This document shows, piece by piece, positions 21,030 through 39,710 of a DNA stretch of 64,000 nt. The stretch's first letter is position 1; the number at the start of each line of letters is the position of its first letter. The translations under genes and the position numbers were made by a program. Below the pieces are notes generated by a model. It did not search any database. It saw nothing but the letters and a program-made list of their open reading frames with translations, and was not told the origin of the DNA. This DNA is from Vicingaceae bacterium (GTDB lineage Bacteria > Bacteroidota > Bacteroidia > Flavobacteriales_E > Vicingaceae). The stretch spans positions 5,804-69,803 of the forward strand of contig JARGOE010000001.1 in NCBI GenBank assembly GCA_029210015.1, read 5' to 3'.

Positions 21030-21031
21030 TA

Positions 21032-24000: not shown

Positions 24001-24067
24001 AATCTTCTTTTTGAGAAAATCCTAATAAAGAATAAAAAACTAATATGAATAGAAATACAGATCGCAT
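21032..24067 (-). CDS. M1-family zinc metallopeptidase with a ~450-aa C-terminal beta-rich extension
   Basis: Signal peptide. Gluzincin motif 'HEVGHNWFYG' plus 'WMDEGLNS' (HExxH-18-E). 1011 aa. Confidence 0.85.
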   Translation of the reverse strand: MRSVFLFILVFYSLLGFSQKEDSYFQQEVNYQINVELDDQKHQLKASETITYINNSPKTLNYIYFHLWPNAYKKYNSALGNQKLEEHSTLLYHAPDSIMGYINGLEFKVNNEPLEWYYDKEHEDICQVFLLDPLKPGDTVIINTPFNVKIPKGIFSRLGHMGQSYQITQWYPKPAVYDNDGWHQMPYLDQGEFYSEYGTFDVSITLPKNYVVGATGDLINGEKEIEWLNNIAKLTAKKDSFDYRDMSFPKSSNQTKTLHYHQEKVHDFAWFADKRYHVLKGEVELPYSKRKVTTWAMFTNNEADLWMNSIEYLNDATYYYSKWNGDYPYNHVTAVDGALSAGGGMEYPNITVIGQSGNDFGLETVIMHEVGHNWFYGILGSNERAHPWMDEGLNSMNENRYIETKYPNRRLIGLDSVVEKSPLKLFDITQYKHKASYELAYLFNQRRNLDQPIEFDAAEYTSLNYGGIVYSKTAIVFDYLMAYLGEEVYDRCMQRYFNEWKFKHPQPKDLQYIFEDETGKDLKWFFNDLIKTTKSLDYKIVRTKKDTSNPENVLIKVRNRGVNGPFSISGVTKAGKITTTKWFESIDKKSFVSFPKGDFYKYRIDAELNIPEAKRKNNNLQVKGLLKKTEPLRLQLIGSVENPDKTQLFFAPIAGINMNDKGMLGMAFYNSTIPSKKFEYVIAPMYAFSSENINGYASAYYHITPNNLFQDIAIGATTSSFSYLRFNTEQHSKGRDVLEYYKINPTLELTFKKKRARQFSQAFIKLENINIIEEKANYSLNIEGKNVYDIDMENYYINRLILGIKNTHPINPFTANVVVQQATDFIKLDLEANYHFAYKKNKTGLDIRIFLGRFILNDNTNGRYHYNLSGNSDYTYEQIFVARNTPNHFLNQQAAITDGGFKNLTTIRSGDSWLSAINVKSNLFTRTISIYGDFGLIGFKDRDFNNNEIDAVSDPAYNIGLSLNIVPKIFEIYFPVVMSSDLNQLNYGEKIRFTLNLNTLNPFKFARNFEM

Positions 24068-24678
24068 TATTTTCCAATTTTCTCTTTAATCATTGAAGTT
24101 AAAATATCAATAGCCACTTTGTTTTCACCACCAACAGGAACAATCATGTCTGCATATTTCATAGTTGGCTCAATAAATTGGTTGTGCATTGGTTTTAAAG
24201 TTTTTTCATAACGAGTTAAAACCTCTTCAATATCTCTACCTCGCTCTGTAATGTCTCGTTTAATTCGTCTAATTAATCTGTCATCAGCATCTGTATGAAC
24301 AAATATTTTAATATCACACATGTCTCGAAGTTCTTTGTTTGTGAAAACTAAAATTCCTTCTACAATTAAAATTTCTTTTGGATGAACAATTTTATAATCG
24401 TTAGATCTAGAGTGGGTAGTGTATGAATAAATAGGTTGTTCAACATTTCCCCCTCTTTTTAAATCTTGTATATGTTTTAATAATAAATCAAAATCAATAG
24501 AGTTGGGATGGTCATAATTTATTTTCTGACGATCTTCAAAGGTAAGTTGACAGTTGTCTTTGTAATAGGCATCTTGAGGAAGAATAGTTACGTTTTCTTC
24601 TGGTAAACTGTTGGCAATTTTATTAACTACGGTTGTTTTCCCAGAACCTGTTCCTCCTGCTATACCTATTATAATCAT
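24067..24678 (-). CDS. udk: Uridine kinase
   Basis: P-loop 'GIAGGTGSGKTT', 203 aa. Confidence 0.9.
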   Translation of the reverse strand: MIIIGIAGGTGSGKTTVVNKIANSLPEENVTILPQDAYYKDNCQLTFEDRQKINYDHPNSIDFDLLLKHIQDLKRGGNVEQPIYSYTTHSRSNDYKIVHPKEILIVEGILVFTNKELRDMCDIKIFVHTDADDRLIRRIKRDITERGRDIEEVLTRYEKTLKPMHNQFIEPTMKYADMIVPVGGENKVAIDILTSMIKEKIGK

Positions 24679-24685
24679 AAGTTAT

Positions 24686-25810
24686 TTAAAATATTGAAGC
24701 TAATTTATTTTCTAATTCAACACCCCTTAAATTTTTACCTATTATTTTTCCTTCAGTATCAATTAATAAGGTAAAAGGAATGCTTTGAATTCCATAAATA
24801 GGGACAATTGAAGATTGCCAACCTTTTAAATCACTTACATGGCTTTTCCATTTTAAGCCATCTTTTTCTATGGCAGTTAACCAATCTTGTTTTGCATTTT
24901 GTTGTTGAGGCATACCATCAAGTGATACACTAAATACTTCAAATCCTTTACTATGGTATTTGTCGTAAGCCATAACTACATTCGGGTTTTCAGCTCTGCA
25001 GGGTCTACACCAAGATGCCCAAAAATCAATCAACACCACATTTCCTTTTAATGATGATAATGATATAGGATTTCCATCTTTATCAGCTAAAGTAATTTCT
25101 GGAGCAGGCTCTCCAACAAACAACTTTACCATTCCTTCAACCTTTTTGTGGAAGTTTGTATAGTAAGGAGTTCCAGGTAATGATTTAGCTAAAGCCTCAT
25201 CTACTTTTTTAAATTGTTCAAAGTAAATTTCAGGGTCTAATTGTTCCACCGCAGCTAAACTCAATAAAGAACCTGGGTTCTTGTCAATTATATTAATATA
25301 ATATGCTTTTAGTTTTGTTTCAGAAGAAATAGATATAGTTTGAATTTTAACGAAAAGGTCAGGATCATTTCTATTAGCTTCATAAACTCTATTTAAGGAG
25401 TCTTGAAGTAAATAATCCTTTTTTACTTCAATGTTAAATTCTTTTAATCCTTGGGAACCTTTAGAGCCTTCAACAGTATAACTGTCCATTAGATTTGTTC
25501 CATCACCATTTATAATGGGAGTTTCGTTTACATCTAGAATAAGATTAATAAAATTTTGATTGTTAATTCTCAGCCTGTAATATCCTAAATTTTCAACAGA
25601 ATAGTCAAAGCTATAATTTCCTTCAGCATCTATAATTGCGGTATCTTTAGATACTAATTCTGTAGGCATTAAATAATCTAAATAGATTGGTGTACCTTCA
25701 GGAAGATTAGATAAATTACCGTTTATTTTACTGCCATTCAATGTGTTCGTATCGCTACTTCCACAAGCAATTAGTAATGTAGGAATTATAAATAAAAATA
25801 ATTTTCTCAT
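24686..25810 (-). CDS. TlpA-family thiol:disulfide oxidoreductase lipoprotein
   Basis: Lipobox 'LLIACG'. Thioredoxin-fold CxxC 'FWASWCRPC'. Confidence 0.8.
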   Translation of the reverse strand: MRKLFLFIIPTLLIACGSSDTNTLNGSKINGNLSNLPEGTPIYLDYLMPTELVSKDTAIIDAEGNYSFDYSVENLGYYRLRINNQNFINLILDVNETPIINGDGTNLMDSYTVEGSKGSQGLKEFNIEVKKDYLLQDSLNRVYEANRNDPDLFVKIQTISISSETKLKAYYINIIDKNPGSLLSLAAVEQLDPEIYFEQFKKVDEALAKSLPGTPYYTNFHKKVEGMVKLFVGEPAPEITLADKDGNPISLSSLKGNVVLIDFWASWCRPCRAENPNVVMAYDKYHSKGFEVFSVSLDGMPQQQNAKQDWLTAIEKDGLKWKSHVSDLKGWQSSIVPIYGIQSIPFTLLIDTEGKIIGKNLRGVELENKLASIF

Positions 25811-25820
25811 AATATAAATT

Positions 25821-27269
25821 TTAACCGAGCATTTCTCTTATTAGTTGATTGGCTTTTTTAGGGTCTGCTTTCCCTCCGGAAACTCTCATAAGTTGTCCCA
25901 TTAAAAAGCCAGTAAGTTGTTTTTCACCGTTTTTGTAGCGTTCTACTTCGTCAGGATTTTGTTCAAAAACTTGTTTGATATAATCTACAATAGCATCATC
26001 TCCACTTTCTTGAATTAGGTTAAGTCTCTCCGCTATTTCTAAAGCACTCTCTTTTCCGTTAATCTTTAATGGAAATATTTTTTGTTCAGCTATTGAGTTA
26101 CTAATTTTTCCAGAATCAATTAACTCTATAATTTCTGCAACATCCTTAGGTTTCATGTTAGATAACCCTTCAATGGTTTGTGCATTTTTATTTAGGTGAG
26201 ATTTTATTGGGCCATTAAGCCAATTAGCTGCTGCTTTATAGTTTTTTGTTAAGCTTGTTAATTTATCAAAATACAAAGCAACTGGTTTAGATTCAATAAT
26301 GATATTAGCATCATAATCTGACAATCCAAATTCTTGAGTATACTTTTTAAATAAATCATTTGGCATTAATGGTAAAGTTTCTTTTACCCGATCAATGTAA
26401 TCCTGTTTAACTAATGTTGGTTGTAAATCTGGCTCAGGAAAATACCTGTAGTCATGAGCTTCTTCTTTTGATCGAAGTAAAAATGTTGATCCATCAACTG
26501 CATTGAAACTTCTGGTCTCCATATTTATTTGCCCACCAGCTTCTAATAAATCTATTTGTCGTTTAATCTCATACTCAATAGCTCTTTTAACATTAGATAT
26601 CGAGTTCATGTTTTTTGTCTCAGTCCTTTCTCCGAAATTCTCAGAACCTTTTAACATTACTGAGACATTGGCATCACAGCGTAAGCTGCCCTCTTCCATA
26701 TTGCCATCGCAAATTTCTAGGTATCTAACCAATTTTCTAACTTGACTAACATATTCAGAAGCTTCTTCAGCCGACTTTATTTCAGGTTCTGAAACTATTT
26801 CAACTAACGCTACACCAGCTCTGTTTAAATCAATAAGTGTGTTGAAAGGATCTTGATCATGAATACTCTTACCTGCATCTTCTTCTAGGTGTATTCTTGT
26901 TATATTTATGTTTCGCTCCTTATCTGTATTAGGAAAAAGAGTGATATGTCCATTGTTACATATTGGAGTAGTATCTTGGGTTATTTGATATCCCTTAGGT
27001 AGATCTGCATAGAAATAATTTTTACGGGCAAATTCATTATGTTCTCTAATATCTGCATTAACTGCTATACCAAGTTTAACAGCATACTCAATATTGTTTT
27101 TATTTATACGAGGTAAAGTTCCAGGATGTCCTAGAGAAATAGGGCTAATATTAGTATTTGGTAAATTTCCAAATTCAGTTGAATCAGATGTGTAAGCTTT
27201 ACTTTTTGTAGAAAGTTGGGCATGAATCTCTAACCCAATGACAGCTTCATATTTATCGTAAATACTCAT
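25821..27269 (-). CDS. gatB: Asp-tRNA(Asn)/Glu-tRNA(Gln) amidotransferase subunit B
   Basis: N-terminus 'YEAVIGLEIHAQL', 482 aa, C-terminal GatB/YqeY domain. Confidence 0.95.
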   Translation of the reverse strand: MSIYDKYEAVIGLEIHAQLSTKSKAYTSDSTEFGNLPNTNISPISLGHPGTLPRINKNNIEYAVKLGIAVNADIREHNEFARKNYFYADLPKGYQITQDTTPICNNGHITLFPNTDKERNINITRIHLEEDAGKSIHDQDPFNTLIDLNRAGVALVEIVSEPEIKSAEEASEYVSQVRKLVRYLEICDGNMEEGSLRCDANVSVMLKGSENFGERTETKNMNSISNVKRAIEYEIKRQIDLLEAGGQINMETRSFNAVDGSTFLLRSKEEAHDYRYFPEPDLQPTLVKQDYIDRVKETLPLMPNDLFKKYTQEFGLSDYDANIIIESKPVALYFDKLTSLTKNYKAAANWLNGPIKSHLNKNAQTIEGLSNMKPKDVAEIIELIDSGKISNSIAEQKIFPLKINGKESALEIAERLNLIQESGDDAIVDYIKQVFEQNPDEVERYKNGEKQLTGFLMGQLMRVSGGKADPKKANQLIREMLG

Positions 27270-28088
27270 TTATGAATAAATTTCTTTCAGTAATTCTTTT
27301 ATTATTAAAGTCATTTTAGGTTCTGCTTCTTTTGCAACCTCCTGAACCTCTTCATGACTTATTTCTACAATTTTCCCATCAACTCCCAAATCAGTAATAA
27401 TAGACATTGCCATGCATGGTAAATCCATATGTCGAGCAACTATAACTTCAGGAACAGTACTCATTCCAACAGTGTCAGCTCCTATGATTTGAATATATTT
27501 ATATTCAGCAGGAGTTTCAAATGTTGGGCCGCTTAAAACTGCATACACACCTTGCTGTAATTTAATATTGTTTTGTTGCGCAATACTAAATACTTTATTG
27601 TTTAAATCTTTAGAGTAAGGTTCACTCATGTCTGGAAATCGAGGTCCTAATTCATCAATATTTTTTCCTCTTAATGGATTGTCAGGTAGTAGGTTAATAT
27701 GATCAGTGATTAACATAATATCACCTATTTCAAAATTAGCATTTACCCCACCGCTTGCATTACTTAAAAACAAATTTTTAATTCCTAGCATTTTCATAAC
27801 TCTTATAGGAAAAGTACATTCTTTTAAAGAGTAACCTTCATAGTAATGAAATCTACCTTGCATAGCAACTACAGGGACACCGTTTAAAGTTCCAAATATT
27901 AATTGACCACTATGGCCTTGGACTGTTGAAACTGGGAAATTTGGAATTTCAGAGTAGGGAATAGCAGTTTCCACTTCTATTTCTGATGAAAGGTTCCCTA
28001 AACCAGTTCCTAATACAATTCCCGTAAAAGGTTTAACTGATGTTTTATTCTCTAAGAATGATTTAGTTTCCTGTATTTGAGCTAACAT
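27270..28088 (-). CDS. Purine nucleoside phosphorylase (inosine/guanosine type)
   Basis: 'GRFHYYEGY' and 'ADTVGMSTVPE' motifs, 272 aa. Confidence 0.9.
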   Translation of the reverse strand: MLAQIQETKSFLENKTSVKPFTGIVLGTGLGNLSSEIEVETAIPYSEIPNFPVSTVQGHSGQLIFGTLNGVPVVAMQGRFHYYEGYSLKECTFPIRVMKMLGIKNLFLSNASGGVNANFEIGDIMLITDHINLLPDNPLRGKNIDELGPRFPDMSEPYSKDLNNKVFSIAQQNNIKLQQGVYAVLSGPTFETPAEYKYIQIIGADTVGMSTVPEVIVARHMDLPCMAMSIITDLGVDGKIVEISHEEVQEVAKEAEPKMTLIIKELLKEIYS

Positions 28089-29133
28089 AATCTAATATTT
28101 GTTTATCAAAATTCGCTTTATCTTCACTACTAAAAAAATCTATTTTAATAGGGACATAATAAATAGGAATATCTTGAATGTCTTTTAAAATTTCGGGCAA
28201 AGATAATCGCATTATATCTTTTTCCGTAGTAATTATAATTTTATTATCGCTATTTATATTAACAAAACGATTTTTAATTTTTTCTACGTCAGTTTTTGTA
28301 AAATCATGGTGGTCAGGAAACTTTATGTGTCCTACTGATTTGTATTCATTTTTTATATGATTTAGAAGAGGTAATGGTTTAGCAATTCCTGAAATTAATA
28401 ATGCATCAGTTTCTTTGCTTACTAGAGTTTTGTCTAATTTTTTTGAATTTTCATAATGTTTAGATTCGGAATATTTTATGTTGGAGAAATAAAGTTTCTG
28501 ATATGCTTTAGGATTGATGTCTTTTGCAATCTTTTTCAATGTGTTTTTGTTAGTATTAATTGGAGTTTTAGAAACGATAATAATGTCCGCTCTTTTATAC
28601 CCTTCGCGCCACTCTCTTAATCTGCCAGATGGCATTAGGTAGTCATTAGTAAATATATTATTAAAGTCAGTAACCAGTATGTTTAGCCCTGGCTTTATTG
28701 CTCGATGTTGAAAAGCATCATCAAGTAAAATTACTTTTGTGTTTGGTTTTAATTTTAGAATTTCAGTTGCCCCTTTAACTCTGTCTTCGCATACGGCTAC
28801 ATTAATAGAGTTAAATTTCTGGTAAAGCTGTAAGGGTTCGTCACCAATTTCTTGGCTAGTAGATGTTTTTGAGGCTAAAATGAATCCAGAAGTTTTTCGT
28901 TTATAGCCCCTACTAAGGGTTGTTAATTCTAAATTGCTTAATAGGCGTATTAAATATTCTGTCAAAGGTGTTTTTCCGCTTCCACCAACTGAAAGGTTTC
29001 CAATAGCGATGGTAGGAACCTTAAAAGATGTTTGTGAAGTTACTTTCCAATCATAAAGTTTATTTCTGACTAATATAGTTATTCCATATAACAATGAAAT
29101 AGGGGAAAGTATTATTTGTAAAAGAGATTTCAA
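28063..29133 (-). CDS. lpxK: Tetraacyldisaccharide 4'-kinase
   Basis: P-loop 'GNLSVGGSGKTP', N-terminal membrane helix, 356 aa. Confidence 0.9.
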   Translation of the reverse strand: MKSLLQIILSPISLLYGITILVRNKLYDWKVTSQTSFKVPTIAIGNLSVGGSGKTPLTEYLIRLLSNLELTTLSRGYKRKTSGFILASKTSTSQEIGDEPLQLYQKFNSINVAVCEDRVKGATEILKLKPNTKVILLDDAFQHRAIKPGLNILVTDFNNIFTNDYLMPSGRLREWREGYKRADIIIVSKTPINTNKNTLKKIAKDINPKAYQKLYFSNIKYSESKHYENSKKLDKTLVSKETDALLISGIAKPLPLLNHIKNEYKSVGHIKFPDHHDFTKTDVEKIKNRFVNINSDNKIIITTEKDIMRLSLPEILKDIQDIPIYYVPIKIDFFSSEDKANFDKQILDYVSSNTGN

Positions 29134-29244: not shown

Positions 29245-29252
29245 TATCTTTG
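29245..29252 (+). promoter_or_regulatory. Candidate -7 promoter box (TATCTTTG)
   Basis: Exact TAnnTTTG, 6 nt upstream of the ATG at 29259, implying a very short or absent leader. No clear -33 element. Confidence 0.35.
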
Positions 29253-29258
29253 TTTGTA

Positions 29259-29603
29259 ATGAAGTACAACTACTTAAAATATAGCGCACTCTTAGTTGGG
29301 ATTATTCTAATTTCAATTATGACTTCTTGTACCAAGGGTGATGAGCCTGTGCCTATGTCGAACACTGTGAGTGTTGATGCTGAGGATGTGTCTATGATGC
29401 GCGAAGGAGATCTTACTGGTGGGGGTGATGGAGATGGGGATGTTTCTATAGTAGGTGGTGATAATAATGAAGATGATGATGACGATACTATAATTGGTGG
29501 GGATGATAATGAGGATGATGATGTTGATGTTGTTGGAGGTGATGTGATTATAGGTGGTGGTTTAACTGGTGGCTCTTCAGATGGTGGTAAGGGTGGTAAT
29601 TAA
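29259..29603 (+). CDS. Small acidic Gly/Asp-repeat lipoprotein
   Basis: The track ORF starts at a TTG (29250). The in-frame ATG at 29259 gives MKYNYLKYSALLVGIILISIMTSC, a signal peptide plus lipobox. The mature part is dominated by GGD/NEDDDD repeats. Confidence 0.55.
   Translation: MKYNYLKYSALLVGIILISIMTSCTKGDEPVPMSNTVSVDAEDVSMMREGDLTGGGDGDGDVSIVGGDNNEDDDDDTIIGGDDNEDDDVDVVGGDVIIGGGLTGGSSDGGKGGN
29451..29549 (+). repeat. Imperfect coding tandem repeat (~39-42 bp units)
   Basis: 'gtaggtggtgataataatgaagatgatgatgacgatact' / 'ataattggtggggatgataatgaggatgatgatgttgatgtt' / 'gttggaggtgatgtgatt', encoding (I/V)(V/I)GGD(N/D)NEDDD... Confidence 0.7.
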
Positions 29604-29677
29604 TTCTGTATTACTCCTAAAGTTTCCTTTTCTTTTTAAATTTTCTATTTTTTCTTTTAAATATTAACCGTTTACAA

Positions 29678-29699
29678 ATTGGTTTATTGAAAAACCAAT
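29678..29699 (+). other. 8-bp inverted repeat (ATTGGTTT-N6-AAACCAAT) between the lipoprotein gene and the receptor gene
   Basis: Perfect 8-bp arms with no following T-run. It could be a weak terminator or a protein-binding site. Confidence 0.3.
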
Positions 29700-29726
29700 A
29701 ATAGTTAATATATTTACTCAAAATAA

Positions 29727-29759
29727 TTTGGTTTCATAGTTTTATATTATATATCTTTA
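29727..29759 (+). promoter_or_regulatory. Candidate Bacteroidota promoter (TTTG-N21-TATCTTTA)
   Basis: -33-like TTTG at 29727-29730 and a near-consensus -7 box TATCTTTA at 29752-29759, 47 nt upstream of the ATG at 29807. Confidence 0.4.
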
Positions 29760-29806
29760 CGCCTCTTTATTTGCACTAAATATTAAATTAGATTAAAACG
29801 TTAAAT

Positions 29807-32800
29807 ATGTTAAGAAAATTAGCTGTATTTGTGGCTGTGTTGTTCGTTGCAACAACTGCAATAGCTCAACAAGGGACTATTAAAGGAAAGATGTTGGATA
29901 AAGATAATGGTGAGCCATTAGCTTTTGCAAATGTTGTATTAATGAAAGGTGGATCTCAGGTGGCTGGGACTATGACTGATTTTGATGGGAAATTTACATT
30001 CCCTGCTTTAACTCCTGGTAAATATACTGTTCAAGCTACTTATGTTGGGTATCAACCAATGCAAGTTAATGATGTTGTTGTTACAAGTGGTAAAATTACT
30101 TTTGTAAAAGATATTAAGGCATCATCTAGTGCAGAAAATATTGAGGAGTTTGTTGTTATAGATTATAAGGTTCCTTTAATTGATCCTGATCAAACTTCCT
30201 CAGGTGGGACTGTTACTGCTGAAGATATTAAAAAGATGCCAGGACGTTCTGCGGCTTCTATTGCTGCAACTGTCGGAGGTGTTTATTCTCAAGATGATGG
30301 GGGTTCCGGGCTTAGTGTTAGGGGGTCTAGAACTAGTGGTACTGATACTTATATTGATGGGATTAAAGTTAGAGGGGGATCGAATTTACCTAATTCTGCA
30401 ATCGAACAAGTTTCTGTTATTACTGGAGGTATTCCAGCTCAATTTGGTGATGCGACAGGTGGTATTGTAAATATTACTACTAAAGGTGCTTCTAAAGATT
30501 GGTTTGGTGGTATAGAGTATTTAACTTCTGGGTTTAAAACAGGTGATGATGTTGTTGGGTTGGATAAATTTGGTTTTAACCTTTTAGGATGGAGTGTTTC
30601 TGGGCCTATAATAACAAGAAAAGATTCTTTAGGAAACAAGAAAGATGCAATTGCAGGCTTCTTCTTTTCTGGTGAAGCAAAACATGAGGTAGATCCTAGA
30701 CCTTTTTATAATGGAGACATGAAAGTTAATGATGCTTTAATGTTGGAGTTAGAAGAAACTCCTTATTTACAGAATTTAGGTGAGCAAGGTGGAGTTATTA
30801 ATAGTGCTAGTTATGTTGGATTAAATGATTTAGAGGAAACACCTTTTAGATTAAATGTTGCTCGTAAATCATTAAATTTAGCAGGCAAGATAGATTTAAC
30901 AACTTCAAAAACTACTAATGTTGCTATTGGTGGTTCTTTCGATTATAGAGATGCAAATGATTATGTTAGAAATAATACAAATGCTTTTTCTTTATTTAAT
31001 TCTGCTAATAATCCTCAAAGGATAAATCAGACATGGAGAGTTTATGGTAGATTTACTCAAAGGTTTGAAAACTCAGATGATGAAGAAAATCCATCATTAA
31101 TTAAAGATGCTTTTATAACTTTTCAGGTAGATTATTCTAAAGTAAATCAAACAGTTCAAAGTGAAATACATAAAGATAATCTTTCTCATTATGGATATAT
31201 TGGAAAGTTTACTACTACAAGGACTCAAGTTTATGAGGTAGGTACCGATACTGCTTTAGTTGTTGATGCCAACGGAAATTTAACAGGAGATACTTTAAAT
31301 GGGTTCTTTTCTAATTGGGCTACATTACTTTATGATTATGAGCCTGGAACTTTAAATCCAATATTATCTAATTATACATCTAACTATTATGATGTGTATT
31401 CTAATGATCCAGAAGGTCATTGGGATAATAGAGAAAATGTACAATCTTTTGGTGGTTTGATAAATGGAGATAATCCAGGGAATGTATATGGGATGTGGTC
31501 TTCAATGGGTAGAGTGAATAATGCTTATAGTGTTAATGATCAATCTCAATTTAGAGTTTCTGGTCAAGGTAGTGCTAGTATTAAAGATCATTCATTAAAA
31601 ATTGGTTTCGAATACGAACAAAGAAATGATAATTTTTATAGTGTAGCTCCAGTTGGTTTGTGGGGATTAGGAAGGCAGTTAGTAAATACACAAATTGAAC
31701 AAAGAAGTTTTGAAGAAGGTACTTTTAGTCAAGAAATATGGATAGATGGTATTCCTGCATATCTATTCGATCAGGCATATGACCCTGATGCACACAATAC
31801 ATTCGATAAAAATTTAAGAGATGCATTAGGTATGCAAATCGATGGTACTAATTGGATTGATTTTGATTCATATGGAGCTGATGTTTGGAATATTGATATG
31901 TTTTCACCAGATGAATTAATATCTAATGGTGGTTTTGTTAATAGTTTTGGTTATGACCATACTGGTGAAAAATTATCTGGTAACCCTAGTGTAGATGATT
32001 TCTTTACTAAAACAGATGATAATGGTGATTACTTAAGAGAGAACCCTGGTTTTAAACCAATTTATGTTGCAGGTTTTATTCAAGATAAATTTGCTTTTGA
32101 TGATTTGATTTTTAATGTTGGTATACGTATAGATAGATACGATGCAAATCAATCAGTATTAAAAGATAAATACTCTATGTTTCCAGTTAAAACTTTAGGT
32201 GAAATTGAAACTGGTTCTGAGATTATACCAGATAATATCGGTGATGATTTTGTTGTTTATGTTGCAGACGCTACAAATCCTAATGCTGGTGATATTGTTG
32301 GTTATAGAGATGGTGATACTTGGTACAATAAGGAAGGTGAGTTGATAACAGATCCTTCTATTCTTAATTCATCAGGTGTACCTAATCCATGGTTAGTAGA
32401 CCCTAATGATGATCAAGTTTTTGCTGATTTAGATGGTGAATCTTTTAAGGATTTTGAGCCACAAGTTAATATTTCTCCTAGAATTGCATTCTCTTTCCCT
32501 ATATCTGATGAAGCTTTGTTTTTTGCTCATTATGATGTTTTAACTCAAAGACCTGAAAGTAACAATAGAATGGATTTAATAAGTTATTTAGGATTTGGTG
32601 CAGGTGGTACTAATATTTTTGGTGGATATTTTAATAACCCTGCGTTGAAGGCAGAACAAACTATTGATTACGAATTAGGTTTTCAACAAAAATTAGATAA
32701 CTATTCTGCATTAAAAATTTCTGCTTTCTATCGTGAAATGAGAAATCAAGTTCAATCTACTCAAGTTATTGGTGCTTACCCAGGGAATTATTTTACTTTT

Positions 32801-33550
32801 GATAATCAGGATTTCGGTACTGTAAAAGGATTTACAATAAGTTATGACTTAAGAACAAAAGGTAATGTTTCCTTACGAGCTAGTTATACATTGCAGTTTG
32901 CTGATGGTACCGGTTCAAGTACAACTACATCTCAAAACTTGGTTTCTTCAGGTAATGGTAACTTAAGAACTTTAATTCCTTTAGCTTTTGATCAAAGACA
33001 TAGAATTATTGTTGCTGGTGATTACCGATATGGAAAAGGTAAAAACTATAATGGTCCTGTAATGTTTGGAAAAGATATTTTACAAAACACAGGTTTAAAT
33101 GTTACTATGAGATCTGGTTCAGGGACTCCTTATACAAAAAGATCAAGAGTTAATGGTTCTGGTGTATTATTTACTTCAAATGGTATTAGTCCTCAAGAAG
33201 GTCAATTAAATGCATCTCGTTTACCTTTTAATACAACTGTTGATGTTAAATTAGATAGAACTATTGATTTACAATGGGGTAAAGGTGAAGGCGAAGATAG
33301 AAAAGAAGCAACTTTAAATGTTTATATACAAACATTAAATGTTTTAAATGCTGAAAACATAATTAATGTTTACGGAGCTACAGGGAATGCAAATGATGAT
33401 GGATTTTTGAATGCTGCTTACCAACAATCATATATTGTGAATCAAGCTGATGAGAATTCATTTAGAGATCAATATGCTGTAAAAGCTGAGAATGGGTTTA
33501 ATTATGCTTTACCTAGAAGAGTTAGATTAGGTGTACAATTGAACTTTTAA
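29807..33550 (+). CDS. Oversized TonB-dependent-receptor-like outer-membrane protein (CarboxypepD_reg + plug + ~1000-aa barrel)
   Basis: Signal peptide ending 'AIAQQ'. CarboxypepD_reg-like 'GTIKGKMLDKDNGEPLAFANVVL..DFDGKFTF..GKYTVQATYVGY'. Plug-like 'LSVRGSR..TYIDGIKV..IEQVSVITGGIPAQFGDATGGIVNITTK'. C-terminal '...RVRLGVQLNF' with a terminal Phe. Confidence 0.85.
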   Translation: MLRKLAVFVAVLFVATTAIAQQGTIKGKMLDKDNGEPLAFANVVLMKGGSQVAGTMTDFDGKFTFPALTPGKYTVQATYVGYQPMQVNDVVVTSGKITFVKDIKASSSAENIEEFVVIDYKVPLIDPDQTSSGGTVTAEDIKKMPGRSAASIAATVGGVYSQDDGGSGLSVRGSRTSGTDTYIDGIKVRGGSNLPNSAIEQVSVITGGIPAQFGDATGGIVNITTKGASKDWFGGIEYLTSGFKTGDDVVGLDKFGFNLLGWSVSGPIITRKDSLGNKKDAIAGFFFSGEAKHEVDPRPFYNGDMKVNDALMLELEETPYLQNLGEQGGVINSASYVGLNDLEETPFRLNVARKSLNLAGKIDLTTSKTTNVAIGGSFDYRDANDYVRNNTNAFSLFNSANNPQRINQTWRVYGRFTQRFENSDDEENPSLIKDAFITFQVDYSKVNQTVQSEIHKDNLSHYGYIGKFTTTRTQVYEVGTDTALVVDANGNLTGDTLNGFFSNWATLLYDYEPGTLNPILSNYTSNYYDVYSNDPEGHWDNRENVQSFGGLINGDNPGNVYGMWSSMGRVNNAYSVNDQSQFRVSGQGSASIKDHSLKIGFEYEQRNDNFYSVAPVGLWGLGRQLVNTQIEQRSFEEGTFSQEIWIDGIPAYLFDQAYDPDAHNTFDKNLRDALGMQIDGTNWIDFDSYGADVWNIDMFSPDELISNGGFVNSFGYDHTGEKLSGNPSVDDFFTKTDDNGDYLRENPGFKPIYVAGFIQDKFAFDDLIFNVGIRIDRYDANQSVLKDKYSMFPVKTLGEIETGSEIIPDNIGDDFVVYVADATNPNAGDIVGYRDGDTWYNKEGELITDPSILNSSGVPNPWLVDPNDDQVFADLDGESFKDFEPQVNISPRIAFSFPISDEALFFAHYDVLTQRPESNNRMDLISYLGFGAGGTNIFGGYFNNPALKAEQTIDYELGFQQKLDNYSALKISAFYREMRNQVQSTQVIGAYPGNYFTFDNQDFGTVKGFTISYDLRTKGNVSLRASYTLQFADGTGSSTTTSQNLVSSGNGNLRTLIPLAFDQRHRIIVAGDYRYGKGKNYNGPVMFGKDILQNTGLNVTMRSGSGTPYTKRSRVNGSGVLFTSNGISPQEGQLNASRLPFNTTVDVKLDRTIDLQWGKGEGEDRKEATLNVYIQTLNVLNAENIINVYGATGNANDDGFLNAAYQQSYIVNQADENSFRDQYAVKAENGFNYALPRRVRLGVQLNF

Positions 33551-33587
33551 TAAATTAAAGATAGATTAAGATAAAAATATAACTGTT

Positions 33588-36500
33588 ATGATAAAAAGAA
33601 TAGCAATAGGTTTATTAGCAATATTCACAGTAACAAGTGTTTATTCTAGAAGAGTTATGAATAATAACAGCAATGGAGGTAATAATCCTACACCAGCTGC
33701 AGGATGTGCATCAGCAACCAATATTGCAATTTTAGAACTAAATAATGTTAGAGCTAGAATTGAAGGTACTGGAGGAAGTATGTTTCAAGATAGATCAAAC
33801 AATATTGCTGATTATGAAATTCCAAAAAGAGGAAGTAGTAGTGATCCTAAGTATACATCTATTTATGCTGGAGCTTTATGGATGGGAGGAAGAGATGTTA
33901 ATGGTCAATTAAAAATTGCTGCTGTTACTTTTAGAACTTCAGGTAATGATTTTTGGCCAGGACCTTTAAATACTTCTACTGCTGAAATTGATGCAGCAAC
34001 TTGTTCTAAGTATGATAAGTCTTTTGGTGTTTCTAGAGCCATGGTAGATGAGTTTGTTGCTTGGTATCAAGCAGGTGTTGATGATGCTTTAAATAACACA
34101 ACTACTCAGCAAGATGATTTTCCAGGATACCAAATTCCTGATGCAATTTTAGATTGGCCTGCTCACGGTGATATAGGTTTAGGCCAAGATTGGCACTTAG
34201 CACCCTTTTTTGATAGAGATGGCGATGACTTTTATGACCCTAATGCAGGAGATTATCCTAAGTATGATTTAATTGGAGATATTGATTGTAGAACGACAAG
34301 AGATGTACGTCTATTTGGAGATACTACAATATGGTTTGTTTTTAATGATAAAGGAAATACACACTCTGAATCACAAGGGCCATCTATTGGAATGGAAATT
34401 AGAGGTCAAGCTTTTGCATTTGCAACAAATGATGAGGTTAATAATATGACTTTTTATAACTATGAAATGATTAACCGATCTACTTTTACATTAACTGAGA
34501 CTTATTTTGGACAATGGATTGATGCCGATTTAGGTGGTTCTACAGATGATTACGTAGGATGTGATGCTGAAAGAGGTTTAGGTTATTGTTATAATGGTGA
34601 TAATACTGATGAAGGAGGAAATGGCGTTGAAGGTTATGGTACAACTCCACCAGCTATTGGGGTTGACTTTTTTGAAGGACCTTATGCTGATAATGACGGT
34701 ATTGATAATCCGTTGACACAAAACGTTCCTGTTGCTATAGCTAATGGTGGTATACCTTACAAAGGTTTGGGTATTGGTTATGGAGATGGTATAGTTGATA
34801 ATGAGCGTTATGGAATGAAGAAATTTGTTTATTATAGTATTGGAGGTGGACAGTTTCCTGGAGATGGAGATCCGTCAAGTGCTTTAGATTACTATAACTA
34901 TTTAAGAGGAAGATGGAGACTTGGTGGTGCACAGATGGTGTGGGGTGGAAATGGTAATGGTGCCTCTTCAGGAGGAACTGTTCCTGCTGATTTAATTTTC
35001 CCTGGAGCATCTGATCCTTTATTTTGGAGTACAAAAGGAGTTCCTGCTACTCCTGCTAACTGGTCAGAGCTTGATGCTCTTGGACCTAATAATCCTAACC
35101 CAGTCGGTGATAGAAGATTTTTAGAAAGTGCAGGTCCATTTACTCTAGAACCTGGTGCTGTAAATGATTTAACTGTTGGTATTGTATGGGCAAGAGCAGT
35201 TTCTGGAGATAATTTTGAGTCAGTTAATTCTTTAAGAGTAGCTGATGATAAAGCTCAAGCTTTGTTTGATAACTGTTTTAAAATTGCTGAAGGACCAGAT
35301 GCACCAGATATTACTTTCCAAGAAATGGATAGAGAAGTAATATTATATTTAAGCAATAGACGAATATCAAATAACTACAATGAAACTTACAATCAAAAAA
35401 ATCCTTTCATTGCAATACCTGATACACTAGATGGTGTATATCAAGGTGATGATGATGATAAGGATACCTTAAAGTTTTATAAGTTTCAAGGGTATCAAAT
35501 TTATCAAGTTAAAAATGGATTAATTACTGTTCAAGAATTAGATGATCCAAATAGCGCTAGATTAGCTGCTCAAGTTGATTTAAAAGATGGGGTTACTCAG
35601 TTGGTTAATTTCACTTATGATGAAAATTTACAAGCCAATGTGCCAAAAGAGGAAGTGAATGGAGCAGATGAAGGAATTAAACATTCATTTAGATTTACAA
35701 CTGATTTGTTTTCAGAAGGTGATGCGCGATTAGTTAACCATAAAACATATTACTACATTGCTATAGCATATGGGTATAATCAATATAAGAAGTATGATCC
35801 ATTAGACCCATTAGCGTTAGACGGACAAAAAGAGCCTTATATTGCTAGTAGAAAACAGGCCGGAGGTTCAGGTATTTCTTCTTTTTCAGTAATACCACAT
35901 AACCCTGCACCAGAAGCTGGAGGAACAGTTGCTAATTCTGCATATGGTGATATGCCTCAGATTAAAAGGATAGAAGGACAAGGGAATGGTGGAAATGAAT
36001 TACAATTGACAGCAAGTTCAGAAGCATCAATAGTAGCTAATAACTTTATGGATTTCCCAACTTACCAATCAGGTCATGGACCGATTCAAGTAAAAGTTGT
36101 AGATCCATTAAATGTTAAAGCTGGTGTTTATAGAGTTCAATTTAAAGACACAGTAACAGCAGGAAGTTTGGATGATGCATTTTGGACTATTCATGTTCCA
36201 AACATTGGAAATGGAATAGATTCTATTAATGCGGACCAATTAATTACTATTGAGAATGAACAATTGTTGTTGGATTACGGAATATCATTATCAATTAAGC
36301 AAGCAGCTAAGCCTGGAGAAGAAAAAGAGTTAGGTAGTGGTGTAATTATTGGTAATGTAGAGTATGCAGATTCTACTAAGAAATGGTTAGGAGGTTTTGC
36401 TGATAGAGAAGGACAAACTGACGCTAATTGGATTAGATCTGGAAACTCTGTATTTGATGTTGGAAGCGTTGTTGATCCTTATAATGATTACGACAATGGT

Positions 36501-37646
36501 AATTTCCAAGATCCTGAATCAGATTTTGAAGGATTAGTTGATAAGACTTGGTCACCATATAGATTGGTTTCATTTGTAAAACCACCATCACCAACAACAG
36601 GAACTATGGTTGATGCTGTAGGTTTAGCATTATTAAGCGGTTCTGGGCCAAGAGGAGCAAATTTAGAAGATTTACCGTCAGTTGATATTGTATTTACATC
36701 AGATAAGAGTAAATGGAGTAGATCTATGGTTTTTGAAGCTAGAAATGATGTCGTACTTGCAGAAGGAGGAGCTAAACATCTAGAATTAAGAGCAGGAGCT
36801 AGTGTAGATAAAAATGGTAATCCAGATGGAGATGGTACTGGTATGGGATGGTTCCCAGGTTATGCTATCAACTTGGAAACAGGAGAAAGATTGAATATTG
36901 CTTTTGCTGAAGATAGCTGGTTAGCTGGTGAAAATGGTAGAGATATGAAATGGAATCCGACTTCAGTTGAGACCGGAGGTGTGAACCAAGAATTATTGAT
37001 GGGAGGAAAGCATTATGTATATGTATTTAGAAAAGCATCATCAGGTGTTTCGTTTCCAGCTTATGATGGTTGTGCAACATTACGAACTGAGTTTAATGGA
37101 GCAGATGTGAAGAAAATGTTAGCAATGAGAACATGTGCTTGGGCTGGTATTCCTATGTTAGAAGAAGGGCGTTCATTATTAGAGACAGATGCAAGAGTTA
37201 GATTACGTGTAGAGAGACCATATGAAAGCTTTGCAACAGCTTCTACTACAAATGGCGGATTACCTATGTATGAGTTTGATATGACAGGGATGGAAGTCGA
37301 AACAGGAAGTATGACAGCTATGGATTCAGTATTAGACTTAATTAATGTTGTACCAAATCCTTATTATGCTTACAGTGAATATGAAAATGATAAATTAGAT
37401 AACAGAATTAAGATTACTAATTTACCTGAAATATGTACTATATCGATTTATAATATTAGTGGAACATTGATGAGAAGATATGTGAAAGGAGATCCAAAAA
37501 CTAGTTTAGATTGGGATTTAAAGAATTTTGTAAATGTACCTGTTGCAAGTGGAGTTTATTTAATTCATGTTGATGTACCAGATGTTGGAGAAAGAACATT
37601 GAAATGGTATGGAGTTATGAAACCTACTGATTTGAACGGTTTTTAA
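33588..37646 (+). CDS. 1352-aa secreted protein of unknown function ending in a T9SS-type C-terminal sorting domain
   Basis: Signal peptide 'IAIGLLAIFTVTSVYS'. No catalytic motif recognised. The C-terminal ~95 aa, 'VVPNPYY..IKITNLPEICTISIYNISGTLMRRY..LDWDLKN..VASGVYLIHVDVP..GERTLKWYGVMK', matches the Por-secretion-tail pattern. Confidence 0.8.
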   Translation: MIKRIAIGLLAIFTVTSVYSRRVMNNNSNGGNNPTPAAGCASATNIAILELNNVRARIEGTGGSMFQDRSNNIADYEIPKRGSSSDPKYTSIYAGALWMGGRDVNGQLKIAAVTFRTSGNDFWPGPLNTSTAEIDAATCSKYDKSFGVSRAMVDEFVAWYQAGVDDALNNTTTQQDDFPGYQIPDAILDWPAHGDIGLGQDWHLAPFFDRDGDDFYDPNAGDYPKYDLIGDIDCRTTRDVRLFGDTTIWFVFNDKGNTHSESQGPSIGMEIRGQAFAFATNDEVNNMTFYNYEMINRSTFTLTETYFGQWIDADLGGSTDDYVGCDAERGLGYCYNGDNTDEGGNGVEGYGTTPPAIGVDFFEGPYADNDGIDNPLTQNVPVAIANGGIPYKGLGIGYGDGIVDNERYGMKKFVYYSIGGGQFPGDGDPSSALDYYNYLRGRWRLGGAQMVWGGNGNGASSGGTVPADLIFPGASDPLFWSTKGVPATPANWSELDALGPNNPNPVGDRRFLESAGPFTLEPGAVNDLTVGIVWARAVSGDNFESVNSLRVADDKAQALFDNCFKIAEGPDAPDITFQEMDREVILYLSNRRISNNYNETYNQKNPFIAIPDTLDGVYQGDDDDKDTLKFYKFQGYQIYQVKNGLITVQELDDPNSARLAAQVDLKDGVTQLVNFTYDENLQANVPKEEVNGADEGIKHSFRFTTDLFSEGDARLVNHKTYYYIAIAYGYNQYKKYDPLDPLALDGQKEPYIASRKQAGGSGISSFSVIPHNPAPEAGGTVANSAYGDMPQIKRIEGQGNGGNELQLTASSEASIVANNFMDFPTYQSGHGPIQVKVVDPLNVKAGVYRVQFKDTVTAGSLDDAFWTIHVPNIGNGIDSINADQLITIENEQLLLDYGISLSIKQAAKPGEEKELGSGVIIGNVEYADSTKKWLGGFADREGQTDANWIRSGNSVFDVGSVVDPYNDYDNGNFQDPESDFEGLVDKTWSPYRLVSFVKPPSPTTGTMVDAVGLALLSGSGPRGANLEDLPSVDIVFTSDKSKWSRSMVFEARNDVVLAEGGAKHLELRAGASVDKNGNPDGDGTGMGWFPGYAINLETGERLNIAFAEDSWLAGENGRDMKWNPTSVETGGVNQELLMGGKHYVYVFRKASSGVSFPAYDGCATLRTEFNGADVKKMLAMRTCAWAGIPMLEEGRSLLETDARVRLRVERPYESFATASTTNGGLPMYEFDMTGMEVETGSMTAMDSVLDLINVVPNPYYAYSEYENDKLDNRIKITNLPEICTISIYNISGTLMRRYVKGDPKTSLDWDLKNFVNVPVASGVYLIHVDVPDVGERTLKWYGVMKPTDLNGF

Positions 37647-37686
37647 ATTTAATAATAAAGATAGAATACAATATATACTTTAGAAT

Positions 37687-38769
37687 ATGAAGAAAATTAA
37701 AATATCAATCTTATTAGTAGCAGCTTGTTGTTCAGCTAATTTATTTGCTGGAAATGAAGACAGAGCTGGTGAAGCAGGTGCTTCTCAACTACTTATTAAT
37801 CCTTGGACTAGAAGTGTCGGATTTGGAGGTGCTAATACAGCTTCGGTTACCGGCCTTGAAGCTATGGGTTTAAATATTGCAGGATTAGCTTTTACTAGAA
37901 AAACAGAATTATTAGTTAACCATAAAAGATATTTGGTTGGTAGTGATGTTAGTATAAATAGTTTTGGATTCGCTCAAAAGCTAGGGGAATCTGGAGTGCT
38001 AGGGGTTTCTGTAATGAGTATGAAATTTGGAGACATTGATATAACTGAAGTTAATTTACCTGAAGGTGGTATTGGTACTTTTTCTCCTTCATATACAACA
38101 ATAGATGCAGGATATTCTAAGAAATTTTCTAATAGTATTTCTGGTGGATTAGGAGTTAGAATTATTAGTGAGTCTATTGCTAACGTATCTGCTCGTGGAT
38201 TTGCATTTGATGCTGGTGTTCGTTATGTAACAGGAGATAACGATCAAATTAAGTTTGGTATTGCTTTAAAGAATGTTGGGCCTAGTATGAAATCTTCAGG
38301 TGATGGACTTTCTTTTACTGAGATAAACGATAATAATGGTGTTGAAATTCAGTCAACACAAGATCATAGAGCTGCTGCATACCAGTTACCTTCATTATTA
38401 CATATTGGAGCTTCTTACGATTTTTATTTAGCTGCAACTACAGATAGTACAAGTAGTGAAATTTCTTCGGACCATAGAATTACAGTTGCTGCTAACTTTA
38501 CTTCAAATTCATTTACAAAAGATCAATATAGAATTGGTTTAGAGTATGGGTTTAAAAACATGTTTATGTTACGAGGTGGTTATGTGTTAGAACAAGGTAC
38601 TTGGTTTGATTCTGAAAAAAGGACTTCAGTTTATACTGGGCCTGCTTTCGGAGCTTCATTTGTTGCTCCTTTAGGTAAAAAAGGTACAACCTTTGGACTA
38701 CATTATGCATACCAAATGACTGAAAGTTTTGAAGGAACTCATAGTATTGGAATAAAATTAGATTTATAA
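37687..38769 (+). CDS. PorV/PorQ-family-like (FadL-like) outer-membrane beta-barrel
   Basis: Signal peptide. The N-terminal motif 'AGEAGASQLLINPWTRSVGFGGANTASVTGLEAMGLNIAGLAF' resembles the PorV/PorQ family signature. Alternating beta-strand pattern to the C-terminus, 360 aa. Confidence 0.65.
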   Translation: MKKIKISILLVAACCSANLFAGNEDRAGEAGASQLLINPWTRSVGFGGANTASVTGLEAMGLNIAGLAFTRKTELLVNHKRYLVGSDVSINSFGFAQKLGESGVLGVSVMSMKFGDIDITEVNLPEGGIGTFSPSYTTIDAGYSKKFSNSISGGLGVRIISESIANVSARGFAFDAGVRYVTGDNDQIKFGIALKNVGPSMKSSGDGLSFTEINDNNGVEIQSTQDHRAAAYQLPSLLHIGASYDFYLAATTDSTSSEISSDHRITVAANFTSNSFTKDQYRIGLEYGFKNMFMLRGGYVLEQGTWFDSEKRTSVYTGPAFGASFVAPLGKKGTTFGLHYAYQMTESFEGTHSIGIKLDL

Positions 38770-38798
38770 AATATTAAAACACATATTTCAAGTTTTTA

Positions 38799-38827
38799 AA
38801 GAGAACTCAAATTTGAGTTCTCTTTTT
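38799..38827 (+). terminator. Rho-independent terminator closing the outer-membrane module
   Basis: AGAGAACTCAA-A-TTGAGTTCTCT hairpin followed by TTTTT. Confidence 0.9.
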
Positions 38828-38847: not shown

Positions 38848-39321
38848 ATGTCACAAGTTAATTATTATACAAAAGAGGGTTTAGACAAATTAAATGAAGA
38901 GCTTGACCAATTAAAAAATGTTGAGAGGGGAAAAATTTCAGCTCAAATTGCTGAAGCTAGAGATAAGGGAGATTTGTCGGAAAATGCTGAATATGATGCA
39001 GCTAAAGAAGCGCAAGGTTTGCTAGAGTTAAAAATATCTAAACTAGAAACAATTATTTCTTCAGCTAGAGTTGTTGATGAATCTCAATTAGATACATCTA
39101 AAGCATTAATTTTATCTAAAGTTAAAATTAAGAATGTTGCAAATGGTGTTGTAATGGAATATACTTTGGTTTCGGAAAAAGAAGCTGATTTGAAGCAAAG
39201 ACGTATTTCTGTTGATTCTCCTATAGGTGAAGGTTTGTTGGGTAAATCTGTAGGGGATATTGCAGAGGTTAAGGTTCCTACCGGAATAATCAATTTTGAA
39301 ATCATTGAAATTTCTAGATAA
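38848..39321 (+). CDS. greA: Transcription elongation factor GreA
   Basis: 'GDLSENAEYDAAKEAQ' signature, 157 aa. Confidence 0.95.
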   Translation: MSQVNYYTKEGLDKLNEELDQLKNVERGKISAQIAEARDKGDLSENAEYDAAKEAQGLLELKISKLETIISSARVVDESQLDTSKALILSKVKIKNVANGVVMEYTLVSEKEADLKQRRISVDSPIGEGLLGKSVGDIAEVKVPTGIINFEIIEISR

Positions 39322-39710
39322 TGGCTTCTATTTTTACTAAAATAATTAATAGAGAGGTTCCAGGATATATAATTGATGAAAATGAAGATTTTATAGCATT
39401 TTTAGATGTATTTCCTTTAGCTAAAGGACATACATTAGTTGTTCCTAAAAAGGAGGTTGATTATATTTTTGATTTAGATGAACAAACCTATATAGGTTTG
39501 CAAAAATTTGCTAAAAAAGTAGCATTAAAAGTTGAAAAAGCAATTGTGTGTGAACGAATTGGTGTTGCAGTAATTGGTTTGGAAGTGCCTCACACTCATA
39601 TTCATTTAGTACCTATTAATAATGTGTCAGATATTGATTTCTCAAGGCCTAAATTAAAATTTACTGAAGTGGAGTTTAAAGTTATTCAAGAAAAAATTAT
39701 TGGAGCTTAG
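39321..39710 (+). CDS. HIT-family nucleotide hydrolase
   Basis: Histidine triad 'HTHIHLVP', 129 aa. Confidence 0.9.
   Translation: MASIFTKIINREVPGYIIDENEDFIAFLDVFPLAKGHTLVVPKKEVDYIFDLDEQTYIGLQKFAKKVALKVEKAIVCERIGVAVIGLEVPHTHIHLVPINNVSDIDFSRPKLKFTEVEFKVIQEKIIGA

Follow-up and report, generated by a model that had tools for sequence, protein, structure and literature searches.

A conserved three-gene locus of Flavobacteriales and Bacteroidales encodes a candidate outer-membrane surface complex for TonB-dependent uptake

The TonB-dependent transporters of Bacteroidota are understood to work with surface lipoproteins, and type IX secretion system (T9SS) cargo is understood to be released, to be lipid-anchored or to form part of the secretion machine. 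In Porphyromonas gingivalis, the C-terminal sorting domains (CTDs) of PorZ and PorU are uncleaved, PorQ serves as the anchor of PorZ, and a proposal holds that PorQ picks up a substrate of its own at the translocon (PMC10947112). Type B CTD proteins encoded beside dedicated PorP-like anchoring barrels have experimental precedent (PMC9143113). The TonB-dependent transporter Oar of Myxococcus xanthus is required for the secretion of the protease PopC (PMC6434023), and the alginate utilisation locus of Rhodothermus marinus includes the genes tonB-hypA-hypB, which were left as hypothetical in the original paper (PMC9530828). The present analysis concerns a window of 64,000 nucleotides (nt) from the metagenome-assembled genome of a Vicingaceae bacterium (assembly GCA_029210015.1, contig JARGOE010000001.1, positions 5,804 to 69,803 of the forward strand), in which four co-directional open reading frames (ORF1 to ORF4) encode, in this order, an acidic lipoprotein, a TonB-dependent transporter, a large secreted protein with a T9SS sorting domain and a PorV/PorQ-family barrel (Table 1).

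Our preferred reading, which is held tentatively and draws on sequence and analogy, is that ORF2, ORF3 and ORF4 make up a single operon, whose products would assemble into a dedicated surface complex of the outer membrane for TonB-dependent uptake. ORF3 would be exported by the T9SS and would keep its sorting domain, which would hold it non-covalently on ORF4 as a private PorV/PorQ-family barrel, and the tethered ORF3 would serve as the extracellular ligand-capture or lid partner of ORF2 in TonB-powered import. The tethering of ORF3 on ORF4 is suggested by analogy, because PorZ sits on PorQ and PorU on PorV. The role of ORF3 as an uptake partner is suggested because ORF2 lies in the same tight putative operon, is a real transporter according to its modelled fold and has conserved long inter-strand segments. 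ORF3 would then do for ORF2 what the surface lipoproteins SusD, BtuG and XusB do for other Bacteroidota transporters, although it would reach the surface by another route, the T9SS. The gaps between the four genes are 203 nt (ORF1-ORF2), 37 nt (ORF2-ORF3) and 40 nt (ORF3-ORF4), and these gaps and coordinates agree with those of a first-pass annotation of the window, which also described unrelated housekeeping flanks, with lpxK on the opposite strand upstream and greA downstream, as the gene annotation bears out. The three large ORFs are not chance reading frames, since full-length homologues with 40-90% identity number in the hundreds to thousands for each. Their NCBI names are generic only (carboxypeptidase regulatory-like domain protein for ORF2, T9SS C-terminal target domain protein for ORF3 and PorV/PorQ family protein for ORF4).

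A scan of one genome per GTDB species yielded 78 loci that encode ORF3 relatives, and homologues of ORF2, ORF3 and ORF4 occur in the same order in 62 of them. In the 61 loci that were measured, the gaps have medians of 23 and 28 nt. The trio ranges over Flavobacteriales (Vicingaceae, Crocinitomicaceae, Brumimicrobium, Fluviicola, Salibacteraceae and Parvicellaceae) and Bacteroidales metagenome-assembled genomes, with ORF3 identities down to 41-47%. Cultured carriers include Brumimicrobium mesophilum, B. aurantiacum, B. oceani (the three Brumimicrobium loci being L058, L060 and L066) and Vicingus serpentipes. Additionally, three of three ORF2 homologues that were looked up independently belong to a trio. 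The first-pass annotation had mentioned similar trios from other genomes, which holds within Bacteroidota and, by annotated gene order, for Rhodothermus; the conservation of the gene order outside this genome, with its tight spacing, is likewise in line with the module proposed there.

In 57 of the 62 trio loci, greA and a HIT-family gene directly follow ORF4, and both also follow ORF4 in L079, L081, L162, L118 and L147. In L118 and L147 the order is ORF3-ORF4-greA-HIT without ORF2, and because this pair persists without the transporter gene, ORF3 and ORF4 are the tighter pair. Conserved order alone is no proof of shared function: greA and the HIT gene are equally syntenic, and they surely have no functional relation to the trio. 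ORF3 is also often found without ORF2 and ORF4. The three genes could thus be functional strangers held together by inherited gene order only, but we regard this as very improbable: in 61 loci from two orders, a uniform spacing of about 20-30 nt separates the genes, all three products are outer-membrane or surface proteins, the ORF2 subfamily was found in the trio only, and CTD proteins beside anchoring PorP-like barrels have experimental precedent (PMC9143113).

ORF2 carries a signal peptide, a CarboxypepD_reg domain, a plug domain and a C-terminal Phe; the last three of these had been read from the sequence in the first-pass annotation, and both domains match their Pfam models (Table 1). Sequence searches of the PDB match the N-terminal domain to the extension domains of a TonB-dependent receptor (6ytc) and of a SusC homologue (9hfj). 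In Foldseek searches of the PDB, an AlphaFold2 model of residues 100-1247 (predicted local distance difference test, pLDDT, 83.8; predicted template modelling score, pTM, 0.83) gives 210 matches at E<=1e-3, the top ones being PfeA, PirA, Cir, FhuA and FusA (E about 1e-24); the alignments to these transporters and to BtuB cover the whole model. Across the classical transporters, the E values range from 1e-24 to 1e-20 and the target-normalised TM scores from 0.58 to 0.79, and the fold matches include the Bacteroides thetaiotaomicron B12 and siderophore transporters that were solved with lipoprotein partners (8bmx, 9gbc). Judged by its plug and its modelled fold, ORF2 is a real TonB-dependent transporter. 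In NCBIfam, no match to the SusC/RagA model is found at E<=0.1, only weak matches of siderophore-receptor type, and the gene that follows ORF2 is not a SusD gene but ORF3.

The first-pass annotation had described the ORF2 barrel as oversized. The 300-400 extra residues are indeed present, but they lie between strands (model residues 196-253, 415-474, 515-652, 681-786 and 1079-1138). A count on the DSSP string of the model gives about 22-23 long strands, and a barrel with more strands than usual is unsupported, as the model aligns end to end with standard transporters. ORF2 is most likely a standard barrel with long inter-strand segments rather than an enlarged one, because the model superposes on standard transporters and the extra residues lie between strands. 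These segments are presumably extracellular loops. Among homologues, the identity to the window ORF2 is 45-59% in the segments, which are almost gap-free, and 51-82% in the strands, and the plug is among the most conserved parts (73% identity); the conservation of the long segments would fit a fixed protein partner. A transporter of this kind could instead act outward, exporting a protein or polymer for which ORF3 and ORF4 would be the surface receiver, with the role of Oar in PopC secretion as its precedent (PMC6434023). Such a direction of transport is hardly to be expected here, as ORF3 has a complete predicted T9SS signal, which makes a second export route needless, and a candidate exported substrate is not encoded nearby.

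ORF3 has a signal peptide readable in the sequence, followed by a body that resembles no described family. Pfam gives no family in ORF3 at E<=0.1, scans of 25 relatives at E<=1 return CTD models only, and sequence and profile searches of the PDB find no relative except a weak match to the PorZ CTD (5m11). The AlphaFold2 model of residues 36-1235, a range that leaves the CTD outside, is mostly β-strand (pLDDT 84.6), and Foldseek searches of the PDB and BFVD return poor matches only (TM 0.10-0.21, root-mean-square deviation >9 Å): in the PDB these are glycoside hydrolases and phosphorylases of multi-domain build, and among the viral models they are phage proteins with an FN3 annotation. When clustered at 50% identity, the family counts 7286 cluster representatives at E<=1e-3, and 2098 at the stricter threshold of E<=1e-30. 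By these searches, the ORF3 body is an unclassified, very large family without a close solved fold, in keeping with the first-pass annotation, which had recognised no catalytic motif; none of Pfam, NCBIfam, the PDB and Foldseek supplies such a motif or a characterised family. An N-terminal module is delimited by the alignment with paralogs of 580-730 amino acids (aa), by partial tblastn matches and by the conservation profile. Invariant Asp/Asn/Gly-rich loops recur across the alignments (e.g., DADLG...DDYVGCD, DNDGIDN and GDGIVDNE), which we presume to be calcium-binding loops from their general appearance.

Several specific identities for ORF3 were rejected. A disguised PorU, which would make the pair porU-porV, is excluded because neither ORF3 nor its 25 relatives give any C25 or T9SS_sortase signal, whereas the real PorU2 in L007 scores 704.8 bits on the PorU2 model. 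A clan-CD peptidase dyad at the invariant residues H259 and C325 is rejected, as the region is all β-strand in the model. An S-layer protein like TfsA/TfsB is unlikely, since 41-47% identity across orders is presumably too high for such a protein.

The weak fold matches bear on a reading without a stable complex, in which labour would be divided as in a polysaccharide utilisation locus: ORF3, at the surface or released, would be an enzyme or binder for a polymer, ORF4 would do no more than shuttle it during secretion, and ORF2 would take up the products. Part of ORF3 has weak Foldseek similarity to GH15-like, GH116, GH94 and GH65 hydrolases and phosphorylases, but these matches are of the poor quality given above and ORF3 has no catalytic motif or CAZy-type domain. 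The same annotated gene order occurs inside the Rhodothermus alginate utilisation locus, and several ORF3 paralogs are found per genome, as is often the case for substrate-facing proteins, whereas the present locus has no catabolic or regulatory neighbours and the exceptional conservation of the CTD is not expected of a signal that is simply removed. We consider such a division of labour unlikely.

The CTD of ORF3 is atypical. The motifs PNPYY, ISIYNISGTLMR and ASGVYLIHV...K can be read in it, which agrees with the Por-secretion-tail-like end noted in the first-pass annotation, although the family match is weak: the score on TIGR04183 is 19.6 bits, below the cutoff of 23, and Por_Secre_tail and FlgD_ig each match 6 of 25 ORF3 relatives. 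The CTD part of the PorZ model gives 23.9 bits, slightly above the generic type A score of this CTD. That ORF3 is itself PorZ is rejected, as only profile positions 661-741 of 757, which are the CTD, match, and 23.9 bits is far from the cutoff of 260. Short paralogs that share the N-terminal module carry an ordinary type A CTD (48.5 bits). Identity among ORF3 homologues is 65% in the CTD and 40-57% in the body. Because one would not expect the strongest conservation in a signal that is merely removed, we infer from this pattern, and by analogy with PorZ and PorU, that the CTD is probably retained rather than cut off.

ORF4 passes the NCBIfam PorV_fam model NF033709 with 145.7 bits (cutoff 90, aa 31-359), in agreement with the PorV/PorQ-type signature that had been recognised at its N-terminus, and its sequence match in the PDB is the PorV of Flavobacterium johnsoniae (6h3i_F, E 3e-7). 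It stays below the equivalog cutoffs of PorQ (74.6 against 220 bits), PorV (69.7 against 250) and PorV2 (52.6 against 325), whereas a true PorV2 in L007 scores 514.5 bits. Its Pfam PorP_SprF match is partial (28.3 bits), and the NCBIfam PorP/SprF model gives 31.8 bits against a cutoff of 90.55. By these model scores, ORF4 falls outside PorV, PorQ and PorV2 and represents a separate branch within the PorV/PorQ family. The locus contains no PorU partner, and the absence of both SusD and PorU partners, pointed out in the first-pass annotation, is confirmed by the Pfam and NCBIfam scans.

ORF3 and ORF4 might instead be a lineage-specific accessory pair for T9SS attachment or sorting, similar to PorZ and PorQ, to which ORF2 would give TonB energy or docking. 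The slightly better fit of the ORF3 CTD to the PorZ CTD and the marginally higher score of ORF4 on PorQ than on PorV point in this direction, but outside the CTD, ORF3 resembles neither PorZ nor PorU nor the model of any other T9SS component, and TonB-dependent transporters are not known to be part of the T9SS. An identity of 41-47% over 1350 aa across orders and the fixed place by greA are typical of core machinery; against this, the multi-copy paralogs and the short variants with ordinary CTDs resemble a cargo family. In one Vicingaceae group, an ORF3 duplicate lies about 1.4 kb 5' of PorV2 and PorU2 genes, an adjacency that is probably incidental because it is confined to one narrow lineage and involves a recent duplicate that is 99% identical to the trio gene. 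On balance, a T9SS accessory pair is quite unlikely.

Several observations weigh against the uptake complex that we favour. No binding or catalytic site is recognisable in ORF3, and the locus, with its housekeeping surroundings, lacks a regulator, a CAZyme or any further gene from which a substrate might be guessed. A linker that is poorly conserved (aa 1236-1252, 33% identity) precedes the CTD of ORF3, so that a sortase might after all remove the CTD. The TonB-box assignment of the ORF2 segment EEFVVIDYKV is one of resemblance only, in a region that is moderately conserved and predicted to be disordered (pLDDT 22-43, model residues 1-30). Long ORF3 homologues occur without ORF2 and ORF4 within 5-9 kb in 18 metagenome and 7 genome loci, and because solo long homologues are this many, the ORF3 family can function, or at least persist, away from the trio; in three genomes, solo and trio copies coexist at 99%, 86% and 77% identity, the solo copies being recent duplicates. 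Finally, the Rhodothermus locus, whose annotated order supports a nutrient-uptake role for this arrangement of genes, is likened to the trio by annotated gene order alone.

In the literature searched, no description was found of the trio as a combination, of the ORF4 branch or of the ORF3 body; the components are of known kinds. A wider interpretation is possible but somewhat doubtful, namely that the trio is a three-component outer-membrane machine of an undescribed type, in which TonB-dependent transport would be physically coupled to T9SS display, ORF4 would be a third functional branch of the PorV/PorQ family and the ORF3 body would be a new domain family of more than 7000 clusters without a Pfam entry. 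If the three proteins form one complex, this would be a third arrangement for transporter partners, and PorV/PorQ-like barrels would have a role outside secretion. The ORF3 family also marks an annotation gap: its members number in the thousands and share more than 40% identity even between orders, but they have neither a family assignment nor a structural relative. Since cultured carriers exist, the hypothesis is open to direct genetics and native proteomics.

ORF1 begins with a signal peptide and a lipobox Cys (...IMTSC), which precede an acidic low-complexity body with repeated IIGGDDNEDDDD-like motifs; the motif IIGGDDNEDDDD recurs in the closest loci only. Similar acidic lipoproteins lie 5' of ORF2 only in the closest loci (L001, L002, L003, L005, L009 and L014). 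Other clades have nothing at this position or a small basic secreted protein, which is found in 10 loci as a very basic, Lys-rich product of about 95-104 aa encoded on the same strand just 5' of the transporter gene. The four-gene module of the first-pass annotation therefore reduces to a core of three genes: ORF1 as a fourth core gene is ruled out by its retention in the nearest relatives only, and by its distribution it is a clade-specific accessory gene outside the conserved core. Two promoter-like motifs and a terminator after ORF4 had also been proposed. The stem-loop and the Ts that follow it are present, and both promoter-like motifs can be read in the sequence, but a sigma-70 scan shows no enrichment, with fewer sites than in shuffled sequence.

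Copies and variants of ORF3 are found in several arrangements. On one chromosome (OZ260100.1), two ORF3 copies about 214 kb apart (L007 8001-12065 and L043 8001-12056) are 99% identical, one of them in a trio and the other solo, which points to a very recent duplication or gene conversion. In the short paralogs (580-730 aa), the N-terminal module of ORF3 (here aa about 45-570) is joined to a classical type A CTD, and they occur singly, after a long solo copy or three in tandem. The ORF3 duplicates 5' of PorV2 and PorU2 belong to three closely related Vicingaceae genomes; the corresponding NCBIfam models are named 'putative type IX sorting system protein PorV2' and 'putative T9SS sortase PorU2'. 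A general link between ORF3 paralogs and PorU2/PorV2 was not retained, no paper on these PorV2 and PorU2 genes was found in the literature, and no PorV-like gene other than PorV2 has similar neighbours among the collected loci. In the type strain of Vicingus serpentipes (L081 12767-16977, GCA_007993035.1), a frame change near residue 682 splits ORF3 into ORFs of 720 and 711 aa, so that the gene is either a pseudogene or has been misread in sequencing.

Elsewhere in the window, a gene at 4987-6993 (+) encodes a protein of 668 aa that combines an OmpA domain with a beta-propeller and scores 577.5 bits on a PorE-family T9SS model (cutoff 600), which suggests, by sequence, that this Vicingaceae genome has a T9SS. 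At 20277-29133 (-), several unrelated genes lie between lpxK and an lpxH-like gene that stays below the model cutoffs, namely udk, gatB and the genes of an M1 peptidase (1011 aa), a thioredoxin-fold protein and a purine nucleoside phosphorylase; the arrangement of M1 peptidase, kinase, phosphorylase and lpxK mostly recurs in V. serpentipes. A 1088-aa protein with Sortilin/Vps10 and BNR repeats is encoded at 49367-52633 (-) and scores 140.6 bits on the 'F510_1955 family glycosylhydrolase' model, below the cutoff of 175. Downstream of the trio, the gene order in the window is greA, the HIT gene and ruvC.

Table 1. Features of the locus and of related loci. Positions refer to the window, except those preceded by a locus number, which refer to that locus.
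Feature	Position	Strand	Remarks
ORF1	29250/29259-29603	+	117/114 aa (114 aa from ATG); acidic lipoprotein
ORF2	29807-33550	+	1247 aa; TonB-dependent transporter; C-terminus ...QLNF
ORF2 CarboxypepD_reg N-terminal domain	29876-30100	+	aa 24-98; PF13620, 60.3 bits
ORF2 TonB-box-like segment EEFVVIDYKV	30143-30172	+	aa 113-122; by resemblance; between N-terminal extension and plug
ORF2 plug domain	30197-30466	+	aa 131-220; Pfam PF07715, 41.5 bits (cutoff 23.9)
ORF3	33588-37646	+	1352 aa; secreted, multi-domain, C-terminal T9SS sorting domain
ORF3 N-terminal module	33696-35282	+	aa about 37-565; rich in invariant Asp/Asn/Gly loops
ORF3 T9SS sorting domain (CTD)	37344-37643	+	aa 1253-1352; atypical; most conserved ORF3 region
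ORF4	37687-38769	+	360 aa; PorV/PorQ-family outer-membrane barrel
Promoter-like motif TAtcTTTG	29245-29252		read from sequence; consensus resemblance only
Bacteroidota-type promoter-like motif TTTG...TAtcTTTA, 5' of ORF2	29727-29759	+	consensus resemblance only
Intrinsic-terminator-like hairpin after ORF4	38798-38825/38835	+	12-bp stem, 4-nt loop, T-rich tail
lpxK	28063-29133	-	flank 5' of module
greA	38848-39321	+	flank 3' of module; NCBIfam
greA and HIT-family genes	38848-39710	+	NCBIfam; synteny marker, no functional part claimed
Small basic secreted protein, examples	L011 3767-4081; L016 3705-3998; L020 3728-4009; L074 3724-4020		
Short ORF3 paralog loci	L098/L099 8410-14041; L006 8074-12076; L013 11968-13965		
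ORF3 duplicate with PorV2/PorU2	L007 13504-19780; L008 8709-14984; L012 7608-13805		

A comparison with the described systems places the trio near several of them. Oar resembles ORF2 in that a TonB-dependent transporter is tied to a secreted protein, a likeness of role; however, Oar exports a protein without a secretion signal, whereas ORF3 carries its own predicted T9SS signal. The R. marinus locus has genes for a TonB-dependent receptor (2805 nt), a T9SS type A sorting-domain protein (2181 nt) and a PorV/PorQ-family protein (1056 nt) (PMC9530828), but the genes around it are those of alginate lyases and catabolism, and both the receptor and the CTD protein encoded there are much shorter. In SprB-SprF and PG1035-PorP, the gene of a large CTD protein has as its immediate 3' neighbour that of a dedicated small barrel of the wider PorP/PorV superfamily, which anchors the protein (PMC9143113); the gene arrangement in the trio is alike, whereas ORF4 belongs to the PorV/PorQ branch and the CTD motifs of ORF3 are type-A-like, not type B.

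The PorZ-PorQ and PorU-PorV pairs of the P. gingivalis attachment complex share with the trio the combination of a CTD protein and a PorV/PorQ-family barrel: ORF4 passes the family model, the ORF3 CTD best matches, although weakly, that of PorZ, and it would likewise be retained. However, the body of ORF3 has no relation to the propellers of PorZ or to the C25 peptidase of PorU, ORF4 does not reach the PorV, PorQ or PorV2 cutoffs, and the putative operon encodes a TonB-dependent transporter, which the attachment complex lacks. Compared with SusC-SusD, ORF2 is outside the SusC/RagA family and a SusD gene is missing, and unlike the lipoproteins of SusC-SusD, BtuB-BtuG and XusA-XusB, ORF3 is a 1352-aa putative T9SS substrate with its own candidate anchoring barrel. 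As in these three systems, the gene of a surface protein directly follows that of the transporter, and ORF2 has an N-terminal extension of the Bacteroidota type and a modelled fold that matches 8bmx and 9gbc.

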